Source: Octopus vulgaris (taxonomy: Eukaryota). Taken from it: a stretch of DNA of 64,000 nt. The position numbers and the translations under genes were made by a program. Numbering within the stretch: the stretch's first letter is position 1; each line of letters starts with the position of its first letter. The notes beneath the pieces were generated by a model, which saw nothing but the letters and a program-made list of their open reading frames with translations, searched no databases and was not told where the DNA came from. Shown piece after piece: positions 14,720 to 38,303 of this stretch. The DNA is taken from assembly GCA_951406725.2 (NCBI GenBank), contig OX597839.1, positions 14,446,001 through 14,510,000 of the forward strand. Reading direction: 5' to 3'.

Positions 14720-14985
14720 TTAGTATGACTGCAACAAAGCCAAAATGCCTGTTGCTAAAGTAATGACCAATGCAGGTGTGTGTGAATTTATCACAGCCGT
14801 ACTTTGAGGACCATTGCAAAAATCTGTTTCACATATTGTCAAACACAATACGCCGTTGAAAAAGGTACATAGTGTTGTGTTTTTCTCAGGATTAAGGTAT
14901 CGTAATTTGTGGAAAGTATCGTAGTTCTTATCGAAGGTGAAAGTGTTTCCATCAGAACATTCTCTAATCAAATATGAACTCTTAC
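14720..14985 (-). CDS. Three-finger (Ly6/uPAR/quiver-like) GPI-anchored protein 1, coding exon 3
   Basis: cttag| acceptor, phase 1. GKSSYLIRECSDG...LCTFFNGVLCLTICETDFCNG followed by a small-residue spacer and hydrophobic tail (GPI-signal-like), then stop. Confidence 0.88.
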
Positions 14986-16744
14986 CTAAGAGATAAAAAA
15001 AGAAAAAGAATGTTTTAAAATTGTTGATAAGTTAATTATAATTTTTGTTAATTACAAAGCACTGTTAGTCCACAATTATTACTGTAAACGAGGGTGATGA
15101 GCTGGCAGAATCCAGGTAAAATACTTGGCAGCATTTTGTCTGTCTTTATGTTCTGAGTTCAAATTTTGCTGAGGTTAACTTTGCCTTTCATCTTTTTGGG
15201 GTCAATAAAATAAGTACCAAATGAGCAATGGGGTTGATGTAATCAACTTACCTTCTTACCTGAAATTGCTGGCCTTGTGGAAAAATTTGAAACCAATATT
15301 ATATTGAGGATGAATCTGGGGTCATTAGTAATGCCAAACCACATGTGGTCATTAGGGTCACTCATCCACATTGCCATTCAGTGTTTGATCTTTAGCCAGG
15401 TAACAATTTCTATGGTCTAATAGCCTCTCATTTCAACTCCATTTCTCTTGACCCCTTCTTCCATGTACCTCATTCTCTACCTCTCCTAGACAGTCACTGT
15501 GATTTCCTTCCCAGGTGTGGCCAATGAATTACTTGAGTAATCAAAGCATTTCACAAAATACATTGCAGTACTTTCTCCAGGTCACTGTATTCTGAGTTCA
15601 AATTCCACTGTCGTTGACTCAGCTTTTTATCCCTTCAGGACTGATAAAATGAAATGCAAATGAAAGTGTAAATGGCAGGATTCTTAGCGATATTTGTTCT
15701 GATTTGTTTTGTGTCCATAATTCTTAGCTATTAGAGCTAATGTACCGCTTAGTTTAGCACCATTACCACCATGGCTACCATCACCCCCACCTTTCCCCCA
15801 CCATTGCTCCTGCTGCCATCACATCCACCATTGCTGTCGCTCCTTCCTCTGTCACTGATGCTGTCACCACTGCCACAACTACAACCATGACCACACAACT
15901 ATCATCCTCTTGCAGAAATCTGGCCATAAAGTGACAAGCTTGCTTCCCAACCACATGGTTTCGGGTTCAGTCCCACTGCATGGAACCTTGGGCAAGTGTC
16001 TTCTACTATAACCTTGTGCCAACTAAAGCCTTTTGAGTGGATTTCATAGACAGAAACTGAAAGAAGTATGTTGTATATATATATATATTTTTATATATAG
16101 GTGTGTGTGTGTGTGTGTTTGTGAGTGTCCAGGAAGATCCACCATAACTCGAGATCCAAGCCTTTTTTGAACAACACTGACACGCCACTTCCCATACCTG
16201 GTCAACTAAAAGATGCGAAAATCTCAGAATCATCATAAATGGGTGCTAAGATGTGTATGTCTGCAATCTTGGTCTCACTGACAGCTACTACATCCAAATT
16301 CAACCACCTGAGGTCATTGAGAAAGCGACCTCATTCCCAGAATGACCCCAGGCCACGTACATTTATGCAACCTACCCTTAGCATCACCATATTGGCCTAA
16401 AAGGAGGGAAAGAAAGATGAGGAGTGATACCCTCCTGGTGCCATTGGAGATTGGGTGATCCCACCTCCATTTCTTCGTTGGGCTCCTTTGGGAACCCTTG
16501 TAGAAGCCTTGCATTGGCATTTACTTGAGGGATCCCTACATCATGTGTAAAGGCAACCCTAATGTTTGGAAAATGTCCAGATCCATCCTCACCATCATTA
16601 GGTCCTTTGACACATTGCACGTACTAGTCCAATAAGTTTCCCCCCCCCCCCACCTTTTTCAATGTCTTCCCTTCGTGATAAGAGGGCCATCGCTTCTTTG
16701 TTGGCTCTCCTTACTAACACTAAGTTAGTTGCCTGCATCGTTGT

Positions 16745-17822
16745 TTTTTTCGCTGTTATTGTTGCGTTTGTGGTGTGAGTTTCCTTTTGGGATATATTTC
16801 TATCTGTAGTGGGGTTTTTGGTGCTTGTGGTACTTCAGTTGATGATTGTGGTGCTGCAGGAGTTGTCTGAGTTTCTGCATTTGTTGTGAGTGCGTGTGTA
16901 GTTTCTTTGTTATCTTGTTTTGGTGCAGGACAAGATGTTTCACCTCTATGACTTCTTTTTTGGATTTTTGGAATTACTCTGTTCCCCCTCCTCATCACTT
17001 TTCAATGTGATAGAACCAGTGTCTGTTGTAACCTCCTCCTCTCTGTGTGGAAGCGAATTCGTGTTTGTATGTGTATCTTTTTCTGTGTGTTTGTTTGAGA
17101 GAGAGAGATAGAAGGTGTTGTTGGACTTGATTGCAAGCTGTTGGTTTTTGTGGTTGACCTCAATGACGGTTTTCCTGCTGGTGCTATTGTTATGCCTGCA
17201 ACCACCGCCACTGTTGTTGCTATTTTTGCTGCTTTCCATGTTGTTGGTGGTGCTGATCTTTCTACAGCTGGTGCTGTTTTTTGCTTTCCCAGTCTTGGTG
17301 TTGATGTCAGCGGAGGTCTACAGACCTGTGTACTTATTTGCTGAGGGCAGAGTGCTTGTAGGTGTGTTGTTTCACCACAAGCAAAGCAATATGGCCTTCT
17401 GCCCTCAGAGATCGGGGTAACTTGAGGCGGACATGATCTGGGATATTCTCCAAGCCTTGTGGTTTTATTTGGACTAGCATTTCCTAATCCATCCTAACCC
17501 AGTCTTCTCTTTGCGCCCATTGGACTTTTAGGAGGAGGGTGTTGATTCCCTCCACGATCATGCATCTGACGAGGCACCATACGCTGATACCTGGTGTTAT
17601 TCTGGCGACTCGAACTTTCATTATTCTTCTACCTGTGTAGGACGGGAATATAATGAGCTGGTCAGTTTTGTGAGGTCCCACCAAATGCTTAATGGCCAGC
17701 TCTTCTGCTTTAAAAAGTACAGAGATGGCATCAAAACTTGAGGCCCTTTGAATGAATATGACATCCTCTCTGATTGATCTCACTTGAAGGTGGGAGGGTT
17801 GTTCTGCTCTCTGAGACTGCAC
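16745..17822 (-). mobile_element. Degraded LINE ORF1/gag-like relic with CCHC knuckle (L1/Tx1-like)
   Basis: Minus-strand EGRRPYCFACGETTHLQALCP near 17340-17405, followed by a low-complexity K/T/Q-rich region. Frames broken. Confidence 0.55.
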
Positions 17823-36289: not shown

Positions 36290-36740
36290 TATATATAATA
36301 TTATTAGAGACAAAACCACTATTTTGCAAATCAAACAAGGAAATAATCAATACATAAAAAATTTTAATATAAAGTAAATAAATCGCCACTACAATTGTTT
36401 CCTGTCTTCAAATGACATTCATCAGGTGGATTTCATATCTAAAAATATCAATATTTAAAAATTTTTTAAATTTAAAAATTTTATATAGATTATATATTTT
36501 TATATATTTTCATTGATAAATTTATATTATTTATAGTTTTAGCCATTTTAAATTTATTTATTTAAAAAAATTTTTAAATATTGATATTTTTAGATATGAA
36601 ATCCACCTGATGAATGTCATTTGAAGACAGGAAACAATTGTAGTGGCGATTTATTTACTTTATATTAAAATTTTTTATGTATTGATTATTTCCTTGTTTG
36701 ATTTGCAAAATAGTGGTTTTGTCTCTAATAATATTATATA
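36290..36740. repeat. ~450-bp palindrome with near-perfect ~175-bp arms
   Basis: The arm starting tattattagagacaaaaccactattttgc is mirrored by the arm ending gcaaaatagtggttttgtctctaataata. AT-rich spacer. Confidence 0.92.
36603..36646 (+). ncRNA. Candidate minimal hammerhead ribozyme (mirror copy at 36386-36429 on minus)
   Basis: ccac CTGATGA atgtc atttgaa gacag GAAA caatt GTA gtgg. Stem I ccac/gtgg, stem II tgtc/gaca, palindromic ACAATTGT stem III, GUA site at 36640-36642. Confidence 0.7.
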
Positions 36741-38257
36741 ATATTTTACTATAAAATTGGATTCAATCCTAAATCTGATTTTTCCCTGTAAATTTGGATT
36801 TATTCCCTAATATTTATTATTATATTTATAATGTAATTGTAGCAGAATCATTGTAAATATTTTTGCTCTATAGATTTTAAACTCTGTTAAATCATTTCGA
36901 AAGTTCTTTATTTTGAAGTTCATGAATTCATATGCTGAAAACGGTTTCTTTATAATGATGGAATGTTTTCATTAATCAACTAAAGGCGTCATTAGAAATG
37001 ACCATAATGGACTGATACCGGTACCTCTACTGATACTCATTTATATTTTATTCACCTGTCTCGGAATCTGCCCTTCATAAATATTATGGACTATACATTT
37101 AATATAATGCACATGGCTGGATAGCTCGAGAGTGGATTTCTTTACTCAGTTGGGTCTAATTGTCTACATACGCTGTAAGAATATCATTCGGTCAGTACTT
37201 ATGTACCAAGTTTTATATTTACATAATGTTGTTGTGTGTGTATTATTCCAGCCTAATGAGGTGCCTCAATTTAAGTACCTAGTTCAACTGAATCTTACTT
37301 ATATATATATATAAGTAAATAAATGGAGTTTACTTATACTACACAAATTACTGCACATTAACCCGGAGTCTACTACATCCTTCTTACTTGCGTGAATTTT
37401 GCTTCCCTGGTAACTGTTTATTGAATTTTCCATGTTAACAGTAAACAAAGGATAATTCTTTCATCCATTTATATATATATATATATATATATATATATTC
37501 TTTTATTTTTTTTACTTGTTTCAGTTATTTGACTGTGGCCATGTTGGAGCACCACCTTTAGTTGAAGAAATCAACTCCAAGACTTATTCTTTGTCAACCT
37601 AGTACTTATTCTATGAGAGTCCTTGGCTGGACTGCTTAGTTATGGAGACGTAAACACTCCAACATCAGTGTCAAGTAATGATGATGGGACAAACACAGAC
37701 ACACAAATAGAGACATGTGTGTGTGTATATATATATATATATATATATATATATATATATATATACGACGGGCTTCTTTCAGTTTCTGTCTATCAAATCC
37801 ACTTACAAGACTTTGGTCAGCCTGAGGCTACAGTAGAAGACACTTGCCAAAGGTACCACACAGTGGGACCGAACCTGGAACCATGTGCTTAGGAAGCAAC
37901 CTTCTTATCACACAGCTACTCCCGCACCAGCACAAATGCACGCACACACACACACACATATATGATGATGAGCTTCTTTCAGTTTCTGTCTACCAAATCC
38001 ACTCAAAAGCCTTGGGTTGTCCTGGGGTTATAGTAGAAGGCATTTCTCCTAGGTGCCATGCAGTAGAATTGAACTTGGGGCCATGCAGCTAGGAAGCAAA
38101 CTTCTTACCACACAGCCATGCCTGTGCCTCAGGACGGCTGTGATAGATGGTGCAGTGGTGGTGATGAGGATTGTGGTGCACTGGTGATTATGGTAAAAAA
38201 TAAATAAATGCATAAATAAAACCCTAAACCAAAAATGGAGTTTAAAAGAAAACTTAC

Positions 38258-38303
38258 TGGTGAGGAAGAGAAGCCATAAGGTCGAAGAAGTTCTCACATC
38301 CAT
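38258..38303 (-). CDS. Three-finger protein 2, coding exon 1 (signal peptide MDVRTSSTLWLLFLT)
   Basis: ATG at 38303 and A|gtaagt donor in phase 1, joining exon 2 to give ...LWLLFLTTQCATA|LLCYQC. Full protein is 156 aa. Confidence 0.7.

Follow-up and report, generated by a model that had tools for sequence, protein, structure and literature searches.

Two adjacent octopus genes belong to a QVR-like single-LU subfamily of molluscs, one of them without the 7-8 disulfide

In flies and mammals, Ly6 proteins act as modulators of nicotinic receptors and of potassium channels. A 64,000-nt stretch of the Octopus vulgaris genome (contig OX597839.1, positions 14,446,001 to 14,510,000; hereafter the window) was predicted to hold a tandem pair of Ly6/quiver-like genes, which raised the question of what these genes encode and whether their products might act on receptors or channels in a similar way. 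From the window coordinates, two intact three-exon genes encoding 165 and 156 aa could be built on the minus strand (Table 1). Gene 1 is the downstream copy (LOC115224798) and gene 2 the upstream copy (LOC115224715). The NCBI Octopus sinensis model LOC115224798 (P0002) has the same length as gene 1 and is identical at 163 of 165 positions, and LOC115224715 (P0001) matches gene 2 exactly, again at the same length. For gene 1 exon 1, the assignment was based on an ATG, a GT donor, a hydrophobic N terminus and agreement with the N terminus of P0002. All four introns (2480 and 3591 nt in gene 1, 6774 and 2081 nt in gene 2) are GT-AG and phase 1, and neither gene contains an internal stop.

Table 1. 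Coding exons, repeat elements and neighbouring gene located in the window
Feature	Position	Strand	Details
Gene 1 coding exon 1	21234..21288	-	55 nt; most of signal peptide; phase 1 end
Gene 1 exon 2	18577..18753	-	177 nt; end of signal peptide and LU Cys1-Cys5
Gene 1 exon 3	14720..14985	-	266 nt; Cys6-Cys10, sequon, CNGP, tail, stop
Gene 2 coding exon 1	38258..38303	-	46 nt; signal peptide; phase 1 end; identical in P0001
Gene 2 exon 2	31343..31483	-	141 nt; LU Cys1-Cys5; phase 1 end
Gene 2 exon 3	28978..29261	-	284 nt; Cys6, Cys9 and Cys10 only, sequon, CNGP, tail, stop
Foldback (MITE-like) element, gene 2 intron 2	30484..31273	.	arms of about 244 nt, 97% identical
Foldback element, gene 2 intron 1	36292..36740	.	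192-nt arms, 97% complementary; 65-nt loop
Decayed LINE-like reverse-transcriptase remnant, gene 2 intron 1	33957..35537	+	RVT_1 E 1.8e-6, below cut-off
Mariner-type transposase remnant, between genes	26670..27538	-	Transposase_1 E 5.9e-20; HTH_48 E 1.5e-8
Upstream EGF and laminin-G gene, 3' exons	48323..62510	-	perlecan-like or agrin-like

Exon 2 of gene 1 carries C27, C30, C39, C58 and C69 and ends in phase 1 at the tip of loop 2; exon 3 carries C87, C117, C125, C129 and C134, with the family sequon at N113, and closes with a GPI-type hydrophobic tail before the stop. The corresponding residues of gene 2 are C24, C27, C36, C49 and C54 in exon 2, which likewise ends at the loop 2 tip, and C72, C110 and C115 in exon 3, with the sequon at N93. 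The second intron falls inside a Gly codon in both genes; the two residues, G78 and G63, align, and in the predicted structures they sit between strands (68-76 and 79-88 in gene 1, 53-61 and 64-73 in gene 2). This is the layout of the LU superfamily, in which a signal exon is followed by two LU exons with phase-1 introns, the second at the tip of loop 2, with the GPI signal (putative in this pair) in exon 3 and the genes in tandem clusters (PMC6600238). The shared architecture and product lengths of the original prediction were thus borne out by the coordinate-built models, and every motif it named (CAIE/CAVE, RECSDG/RHCSNG, NTT/NIT and CNGP) was found in the translated genes.

The genes had been described as hidden among repeats. 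Repeats are plentiful, with 6390 of the 23584 bases within 14720-38303 having a copy elsewhere in the window (none of them exon bases), but the genes are not hidden, as NCBI models already exist. Within intron 2 of gene 2, some 70 nt separate the exon-2 donor from the MITE-like element, and the LINE-like remnant has a 76% identical copy at 74-1641. A neighbouring perlecan gene had been proposed; upstream, a gene with EGF and laminin-G domains was located, with exon-like pieces near 62364-62510, 55533-55770, 52820-52895, 50240-50335 and 48323-48489. Its last LamG domain has as best PDB match the 'LG3 peptide', which we take to be perlecan LG3, and its last exon matched agrin only, and weakly.

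The two proteins are more alike than was first suggested. BLASTP gave 41/128 identities (two-sequence E 8e-21), and the mature domains aligned with a score of 157, a value reached by none of 2000 shuffles in which the cysteines were held fixed (mean 30.6, maximum 61); as judged from the sequences, the similarity exceeds chance. Over 96 aligned positions of the mature proteins 38 are identical, and cysteines account for just 8 of these 38, so the claim that the pair share mainly cysteine spacing does not hold. The cysteine sets are unequal: mature gene 1 has 10 and mature gene 2 has 8. Comparison of the two gene regions by blastn returned only short, repeat-type matches outside exons, which argues against recent DNA-level duplication and for an old split: genes 1 and 2 are ancient duplicates. 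A third copy was not found in the window by tblastn, by HMM search of 2116 six-frame segments or by motif scan, and in the O. vulgaris model P0004 the tail resembling exon 3 gave no match other than a weak one (E 0.037) to exon 3 of gene 1 itself. The two genes probably belong to a larger cluster, as a further paralogous model seemingly lies on the same contig outside the window. Across species, gene 1 is conserved, its O. bimaculoides orthologue being 84% identical with all 10 cysteines kept.

For assignment to a family, searches against Pfam, PDB and the ESM Atlas were used. Gene 2 matched Pfam QVR (PF17064) over profile positions 1-86 of 86 with 29.8 bits, above the gathering cut-off of 27.3, and its exon 2 alone gave E 0.0053. 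Gene 1 also covered the full profile, with 23.4 bits (E 1.2e-4), which is under the 27.3-bit cut-off; on sequence it is QVR-like through its family and not a Pfam-assigned member. QVR matches at E<=0.01 were obtained for 49 of 76 family members, and the nearest ESM Atlas clusters are QVR/Ly6 types at 0.92-0.94. The PDB sequence search gave no significant match (best LYPD6, E 0.11). An alphavirus E1 match (E 0.026 with a 4-sequence profile) was discarded as chance because the matched region has none of the cysteines and the match was lost once the 76-sequence profile was used, and Pfam P_T4SS_TraN (E 0.03-0.05) was treated as noise. Toxin_TOLIP matched gene 2 at E 0.3 and gene 1 not at all, and a secreted three-finger toxin was rejected because both proteins have a membrane tail.

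The family comprises 172 clusters, including members from a snail (Bulinus) and a mussel (Dreissena), and is therefore not cephalopod-specific. In the tree, a well-supported branch separates the octopus paralogues and six unnamed sequences from the rest, which gives the proposed lineage specificity partial support. Among 75 aligned members, the C8-x3-C9 spacing and an Asn straight after the last cysteine (CN in both genes) are found in all 75 and N-x-S/T ahead of Cys7 in 74, and the tail motif NGP is also conserved. A C5-C6 spacing of 17 is shared by 61 of 75 members, the range being 17-19; C3-C4 and C6-C7 vary from 10 to 42 and from 21 to 41, respectively. The family is probably not orthologous to quiver itself, given that the C8-x3-C9 spacing is peculiar to it. 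O. bimaculoides and O. vulgaris relatives carry the automatic UniProt label "Protein quiver", which is a domain-based name and does not establish orthology or function. Both loci are intact, already catalogued and very probably functional genes, members of a mollusc QVR-like single-LU subfamily.

Disulfide pairing (1-5, 2-3, 4-6, 7-8, 9-10) was taken from the LU consensus rather than from the models. Gene 1 has all ten consensus cysteines, each kept in 74-75 of 75 aligned members, with unusual spacing at 7, 8 and 9. Gene 2 has eight, with Tyr97 and Ala106 in the family Cys7 and Cys8 columns; it is the only one of the 75 aligned members to lack the 7-8 disulfide. Since loss of this pair is recognised as rare within the superfamily (PMC6600238), gene 2 is classed as an 8-Cys variant and not as a canonical 10-Cys LU domain. 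Paired loss of Cys7 and Cys8 is seen also in P0041 (in both modules), P0127 and P0131; of the two P0041 modules, the one included in the tree groups as sister of gene 2 (99/94), though its branch is very long. Cys7 and Cys8 of this family lie just 7-12 residues apart across the final hairpin, so the bond may be dispensable here.

A predicted fold other than the three-finger type had been named beforehand as grounds for refutation. AlphaFold models (pLDDT 89.2 for gene 1, 87.9 for gene 2) were compared with known structures by VIA-align, whereby ranks 1-36 for the gene 1 model and 1-37 for the gene 2 model were all LU/three-finger chains, the first unrelated rows appearing at Z 4.0 and 3.8. The predicted fold thus agrees with the three-finger, QVR-like identity originally put forward. 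The best match for gene 2 was GPIHBP1 (Z 8.5, rmsd 2.8, 77 aligned), and for gene 1 there was a tie at Z 7.7 between the TGF-beta type II receptor ectodomain (rmsd 3.0, 91 aligned) and GPIHBP1 (rmsd 2.8, 75 aligned), a Z near 8 being middling on VIA-align's own scale. Foldseek returned LU chains too (best E 8.4e-3 and 1.2e-3), with no match at E<=0.001 for either model. The TGF-beta type II receptor ectodomain was among the top matches of both models, and TGF-beta receptor ectodomains, GPIHBP1, CD177 and TEX101 rank level with or over Lynx1; as far as predicted structures go, the fold matches do not single out channel modulators.

A predicted signal peptide and a C-terminal hydrophobic tail, both foreseen, were seen in each protein by hydropathy. 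After CN there remain 30 and 40 residues in the two proteins, including the hydrophobic stretch. The best 15-residue hydropathy is 2.28 in gene 1, followed by 3 residues, and 2.18 in gene 2, followed by 11 polar residues, none in either case being K, R, D or E; windows of at least 1.5 occur in 63 of 69 scorable family members. By hydropathy, the profile of gene 1 is typical of a GPI signal, and anchoring by GPI rather than by a transmembrane segment is highly likely. For gene 2, in whose model a helix is predicted at 126-155, a GPI anchor is probable on the same measure, and a short transmembrane tail may be present instead.

Both genes very probably encode expressed LU surface proteins. A signal peptide ending near S24 in gene 1, and near A21 in gene 2, would direct the chain into the ER, where disulfides would form and the family sequon in loop 3 would be N-glycosylated. 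Exchange of the hydrophobic tail for a GPI anchor shortly after CNGP would then leave a 10-12 kDa domain on the outer leaflet, able to bind another membrane protein at its ectodomain, using loop 2 and the sheet's concave side, and so to change how that partner is delivered to the surface or gated, in the manner of quiver/sleepless and Lynx proteins. A cis accessory subunit is the most likely mechanism, held with slightly better than even confidence, because the proteins have no intracellular part and no catalytic motif; an anchored LU protein acting in cis is also, with moderate probability, the best explanation as a whole. A Cys-loop receptor or Kv channel would be the single likeliest partner, although this is tentative and well short of even; modulation of nAChRs, chemotactile receptors or Shaker/Kv1 is an analogy to quiver/sleepless and Lynx1 and draws support from none of the results. 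The near-fixed loop 2 and widely variable loops 1 and 3 fit a conserved docking finger with paralogue-specific flanks; the constant loop 2 length may be structural instead, and LU domains commonly carry an Arg ahead of Cys6. For sleepless, loop 2 alone is required for binding to Shaker and nAChR (PMC4735452).

A role in epithelia is fairly unlikely, whereby the two proteins would be GPI-anchored barrier or adhesion factors assembling septate junctions or apical matrix, like Drosophila boudin, crooked, coiled and crimpled. Among non-neural roles of invertebrate single-LU GPI proteins it is the best documented, and four such proteins act in Drosophila at septate junctions and not on channels (PMC6600238). 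For gene 2, the highest-scoring ESM Atlas cluster (0.92) is named after 'cold' (coiled), but such names are automatic and several Ly6 clusters are tied at 0.91-0.92. Occurrence of the family in snail and mussel, which to our knowledge are without cephalopod chemotactile receptors, also points to epithelia; repeated duplication in octopus, however, fits a housekeeping junction job less well, and no sequence with classical C-x-C or CC spacing scored strongly against the family profile (P0128, the one such sequence, has E 1.5e-7). The epithelial role overlaps with action in cis in its mechanism, trafficking of a membrane partner, without the neural target. Lineage-local duplication, together with variable exposed loops and heavy predicted glycosylation (3 and 4 sequons in the two proteins), would suit recognition in trans of the immune, microbe-binding, gamete or cell-identity kind, by tandem-duplicating proteins like CD59, Bouncer and Prod1; roles of this kind are listed for LU proteins (PMC13719153). 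A recent gene-1-like extra copy in O. sinensis, with 7 differences within its first 77 residues, speaks for the same reading, yet the two octopus species, at 84% identity, are not extremely diverged here, and we consider recognition in trans unlikely.

Hybrid products are very improbable as an explanation. NCBI models in two octopus species join exons from adjacent genes, those of P0005 and P0006 having a layout of signal, half-domain, half-domain and C-terminal half, and all three cross-gene exon combinations tried remain in frame, because the textbook phase-1 layout makes any such join in frame. Splicing across adjacent genes would then yield hybrid modulators from an octopus-expanded array of three-finger cassettes, acting as accessory subunits for the expanded nicotinic and chemotactile receptors of cephalopods, and just as improbably would include odd-cysteine forms with an extra half-domain and swaps of 8-Cys and 10-Cys halves. 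The joined models may instead be read-through or annotation merges. The related sequence P0027 has a second cassette with its own signal exon, which weakens the idea of one leader exon common to the whole cluster. That gene 2 or both genes are decayed or untranscribed, the loss of the 7-8 disulfide marking degeneration, is likewise very improbable: removal of this bond destabilises single-LU proteins, in which its loss is very rare (PMC6600238), and no gene 2 orthologue under a separate name was returned by sequence search, but frame and splice sites are intact, the P0001 cluster has 2 member sequences at >=90% identity, and the terminal hairpin of gene 2 is still predicted. Moreover, Cys7 and Cys8 were lost as a pair, which leaves no free thiol, and the same paired loss recurs in the three sequences named above.

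The literature searched contained nothing on these genes or this subfamily. Four locus ids were searched for and occur in no paper's main text; three were absent from the searched supplements of PMC9712504, PMC9699675 and PMC13230822, files that may not use such ids. No paper in that literature tied cephalopod chemotactile receptors to Lynx1, or octopus to Ly6 together with quiver. The LU gene lists in the supplements of PMC13719153 may already include these proteins. With about 83 LU genes per mollusc genome on average (PMC13719153), nothing singles out this pair yet. The two genes nevertheless mark out a sharply conserved, unstudied mollusc subfamily and are concrete, intact candidates for co-expression with receptors or channels, and gene 2 is of modest but genuine interest for the stability of the LU fold, being a naturally occurring single-LU protein that lacks the 7-8 disulfide.

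Compared with known systems, both genes have the exon layout of textbook clustered LU genes (the human 8q24 Ly6 cluster and the Drosophila Ly6 clusters) and differ from them only in cysteine pattern and loop lengths. With Pfam QVR proteins the pair share a single LU domain, predicted signal peptide and hydrophobic tail, whereas their domains are longer (counted from Cys1 through the closing Asn, 93 and 109 residues, where the QVR consensus has 60-90), and the family is set apart by C8-x3-C9, N-x-S/T before Cys7 and NGP. Absence of the 7-8 disulfide links gene 2 to uPAR domain I, C4.4A, Haldisin and the TGF-beta type II receptor, but those are multi-LU or transmembrane proteins and gene 2 is single-LU. 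Lynx1 (Z 6.2 and 6.9) and Lynx2 (Z 6.5 and 6.8) are of the same fold class as the octopus models; sequence identity in the structural alignments is 18-24%, no better than to non-neural LU proteins. The GPI and N-glycan anatomy of quiver/sleepless (PMC4735452) would apply alike to the octopus pair.

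For reconstruction of the two Ly6-type genes, the sequence was inspected over positions 9400–57000 and 59900–64000 of the window, and both gene models were assembled by coordinates. Gene 2 lies upstream of gene 1. All four introns are GT–AG and of phase 1, a pyrimidine-rich tract is found at every acceptor, and internal stops are absent; the second intron interrupts an aligned Gly codon (G78 in gene 1, G63 in gene 2). With these rebuilt models and introns, the original prediction of a tandem Ly6-like pair with a common three-exon architecture was borne out unusually accurately. 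An acceptor-like tract ahead of gene 1 suggests that an unseen, non-coding first exon may lie further upstream.

Coordinates of the Ly6-type genes and surrounding features in the window
Feature	Positions	Strand	Remark
Gene 1, three exons	21288-21234, 18753-18577, 14985-14720	minus	coordinate-built model, 165 aa
Gene 2, three exons	38303-38258, 31483-31343, 29261-28978	minus	coordinate-built model, 156 aa
Acceptor-like tract	21325-21345	minus	pyrimidine tract and AG, ~37 nt ahead of gene 1 ATG
Foldback elements	30484-31273, 36292-36740		near-perfect; both inside gene 2 introns
Mariner transposase remnant	26670-27538	minus	between genes 1 and 2
LINE-like element, decayed	33957-35537, 74-1641	plus	two copies
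LTR retrotransposon	5276-9534	plus	terminal repeats 5276-5552 and 9258-9534
Second LTR element	56630-60797	minus	within an intron of the EGF/LamG gene
EGF + laminin-G (LamG) gene, 3' exons	48323-62510	minus	~10 kb from gene 2

A search with exon 3 returned the NCBI model LOC115224715 (P0001) from Octopus sinensis, which is identical to gene 2 and of the same length. The counterpart of gene 1, LOC115224798 (P0002, also an NCBI O. sinensis model), has the same length and differs at 2 of 165 positions (76 and 123, both conservative); these differences point to the window being another haplotype or assembly, or a sister species. These independent annotations, themselves predicted models, support the splice models of both genes. 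Both loci are annotated as "uncharacterized". "Protein quiver" is the name automatically given to P0003, an orthologue of gene 1 in O. bimaculoides with 84% identity, and to P0004, a relative from O. vulgaris. The pair had been described as hidden among repeats, and repeats do surround the exons, with 6390 of the 23584 bases of 14720–38303, and no exon base, being repeated elsewhere in the window, but the genes were already annotated in O. sinensis.

Genes 1 and 2 share 41 of 128 residues by BLASTP. Over the mature domains, 38 of 96 aligned residues are identical, only 8 of them cysteines, and the alignment score of 157 was reached by none of 2000 shuffles in which the cysteines were held fixed (mean 30.6, maximum 61). 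No exonic DNA similarity between the two gene regions was detected by blastn, so the duplication is old. One of the gene 2 foldbacks lies ~70 nt from the exon-2 donor; the pair of elements could form long double-stranded pre-mRNA, with a possible influence on editing or splicing. The plus-strand LTR retrotransposon is a recent insertion, since its 277-bp terminal repeats are 99.6% identical; its zinc knuckle, protease, RT and integrase domains each lie in a separate frame. The other LTR element shows 94.5% identity between its terminal repeats and has a 940-aa pol-like frame; it is 69% identical to the first across 2.9 kb, and DUF7047 is common to both.

To the Pfam quiver-family domain QVR, gene 2 scored 29.8 bits and gene 1 23.4, with a cut-off of 27.3. 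A first profile search, over 1452 candidates, gave 8 proteins at E ≤ 10 and so brought in two further octopus models as well as family members from Bulinus (snail) and Dreissena (mussel). The second, against 1.84 billion representatives, gave 172 clusters at E ≤ 0.001, of which 101 reached E ≤ 1e-10; among the best 150 of the 172, 145 were new. The family alignment combined 70 near-full-length new matches, selected by coverage with fragments and two-stretch matches left out, with 5 named proteins. In these 75 members, 70 of them drawn from the best 150 of 172 clusters, eight cysteine positions are conserved without exception, as is the terminal Asn; the Arg two residues ahead of Cys6 is invariant, and a sequon stands just before Cys7 in 74. 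Spacings are C1-x2-C2, C5-x17(17–19)-C6, C8-x3-C9 and mostly C9-x4-C10, with C3–C4 (10 to 42) and C6–C7 (21 to 41) variable. QVR matches at E ≤ 0.01 were obtained for 49 of 76 members (the 75 plus P0011). Together these proteins form a coherent subfamily of QVR-like type with a signature of its own, and all its named members are molluscs.

Cys7 and Cys8 are kept in 74 of the 75 aligned members, the sole exception being gene 2. Among all 153 gathered proteins (from the best 150 of 172 clusters and the first profile search), 117 have C-x3-C-x4-CN, 30 lack the exact motif, and in 6 the terminal motif is present but this Cys8 is missing. Three of these six (P0041, P0127 and P0131) lack the Cys7–Cys8 pair as gene 2 does, which suggests repeated or shared loss; P0149 also has no cysteine there, and P0128 shows the classical C-x-C spacing. 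P0041 comprises two modules without Cys7–Cys8 separated by a hydrophobic tail and is probably two merged tandem genes.

Three of the six named octopus models (P0004, P0005 and P0006) are hybrids between neighbouring Ly6 cassettes. LOC115224789 isoform X1 (P0006) starts with a gene-1-like signal and half-domain (7 of 77 residues unlike gene 1); then come a second N-terminal half-domain and a C-terminal half that is different. In O. bimaculoides, LOC106879162 isoform X2 (P0005) is built in the same way, so that the extra half-domain is common to two species, and its first 77 residues are those of P0003. P0004 agrees with P0006 over its first 77 residues, and its last part is another piece resembling exon 3. 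The structure of these three models implies at least two more cassettes outside the window. P0027 (75 aa) matches the second half-domain region at 76–78% identity and carries a signal sequence of its own. When exons of genes 1 and 2 were combined across the two genes, the three combinations tried were all in frame, as the phase-1 layout dictates. The hybrids are most simply read as distinct genes joined by read-through splicing or by merging in the annotation.

In an IQ-TREE analysis of 80 rows, a branch with 98/98 support separated 6 octopus and 6 other rows from 68 rows, Bulinus and Dreissena among them. The 12-row group was chosen after a quick tree was known, which makes a shuffle test on it circular. 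In addition, the tree is unrooted, its bootstrap not settled, and P0041b forms a very long branch. The topology could reflect an expansion that is lineage-local, possibly cephalopod, within an older family, but is no demonstration of one.

AlphaFold2 models built with 76-sequence alignments had a mean pLDDT of 89.2 (pTM 0.78) for gene 1 and 87.9 (pTM 0.72) for gene 2. In both, a domain that is mainly beta is flanked by an N-terminal and a C-terminal helix, and the second intron maps between the two long loop-2 strands. As the alignment consisted of 10-Cys relatives, the confidence of the gene 2 model is no proof of stability without the 7–8 bond. By VIA-align against 48,161 chains, LU/three-finger proteins, as judged from the entries, occupied ranks 1–36 for gene 1 and 1–37 for gene 2. 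For gene 1, two matches tied for best at Z 7.7: the ectodomain of the TGF-beta type II receptor (rmsd 3.0, 91 aligned) and GPIHBP1 (rmsd 2.8, 75 aligned). For gene 2, GPIHBP1 was best (Z 8.5, rmsd 2.8, 77 aligned). The first unrelated rows followed at Z 4.0 and 3.8 for genes 1 and 2, respectively. Lynx1 (Z 6.2 and 6.9) ranked among, not above, non-neural LU proteins. Foldseek gave no match at E ≤ 0.001, the rows listed being LU chains or complexes containing one, and the nearest ESM Atlas clusters were QVR/Ly6 (0.92–0.94). A non-three-finger fold had been named beforehand as refuting; AlphaFold2 and VIA-align gave only three-finger/LU at the top.

Past the terminal CN, gene 1 has 30 residues and gene 2 has 40, with top 15-residue hydropathy windows of 2.28 and 2.18, respectively; 3 residues lie beyond the window in gene 1 and 11 in gene 2, free of K, R, D and E. 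Among 69 scorable members of the 76, 63 have a window of at least 1.5 and 64 have at most 10 residues beyond it. Judged from hydropathy, the tail of gene 1 has the anatomy of a textbook GPI signal; for gene 2 a GPI anchor is probable, though the protein could instead end in a transmembrane helix.

Both genes are intact, belong to this family and have a predicted three-finger fold. Their products would be secreted, form disulfides and then be glycosylated at the family sequon; GPI attachment would yield a small outer-leaflet protein without a signalling tail. The usual target of proteins of this type is another membrane protein. In cephalopods, nAChRs and chemotactile receptors are expanded. 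An accessory role in cis is modestly favoured for genes 1 and 2, with a Cys-loop receptor or Kv channel as only a tentative partner. The near-fixed length of loop 2 fits a conserved docking finger, although the constraint could be structural instead; according to PMC4735452, sleepless needs loop 2 for both Shaker and nAChR. PMC6600238 describes septate-junction roles of LU proteins; a septate-junction or barrier role here is rather unlikely, and recognition in trans, in immunity or reproduction, is a degree less probable. Decay of one or both genes is very improbable. Loss of the 7–8 bond is rare according to PMC6600238. Of the original interpretation, Ly6/QVR-like identity stood on Pfam QVR, the family and the predicted fold, whereas the function proposed was unsupported.

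The pair had also been placed beside perlecan. In the EGF/LamG gene upstream, the first exon of the last LamG domain matched "LG3 peptide" 3sh4, presumably perlecan, best in the PDB (E 4.2e-7), then agrin (E 2.8e-4), whereas the last exon matched agrin only, and weakly (E 0.35); the neighbour is likely perlecan-like, with an agrin-like identity the lesser possibility. Analysis of the locus found no functional tie between this gene and the Ly6 genes.

Literature searches, mostly without subscription journals, returned nothing on these genes (including by four locus ids), on octopus with Ly6 and quiver, on cephalopod chemotactile receptors with Lynx1, or on tandem GPI-anchored Ly6 proteins in molluscs; three of the locus ids were absent from the searched supplements of PMC9712504, PMC9699675 and PMC13230822, which may not use ids of this type. 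PMC13719153 counts 2086 LU proteins across 25 mollusc genomes (83 per genome) and describes the functions of invertebrate LU proteins as unknown. Both genes are annotated but uncharacterized members of this known kind, and their layout is standard for the family, LU genes having a three-exon, phase-1, clustered pattern according to PMC6600238; what sets the pair slightly apart is the signature of its subfamily, together with the 8-Cys state of gene 2 and the existence of cross-gene models.
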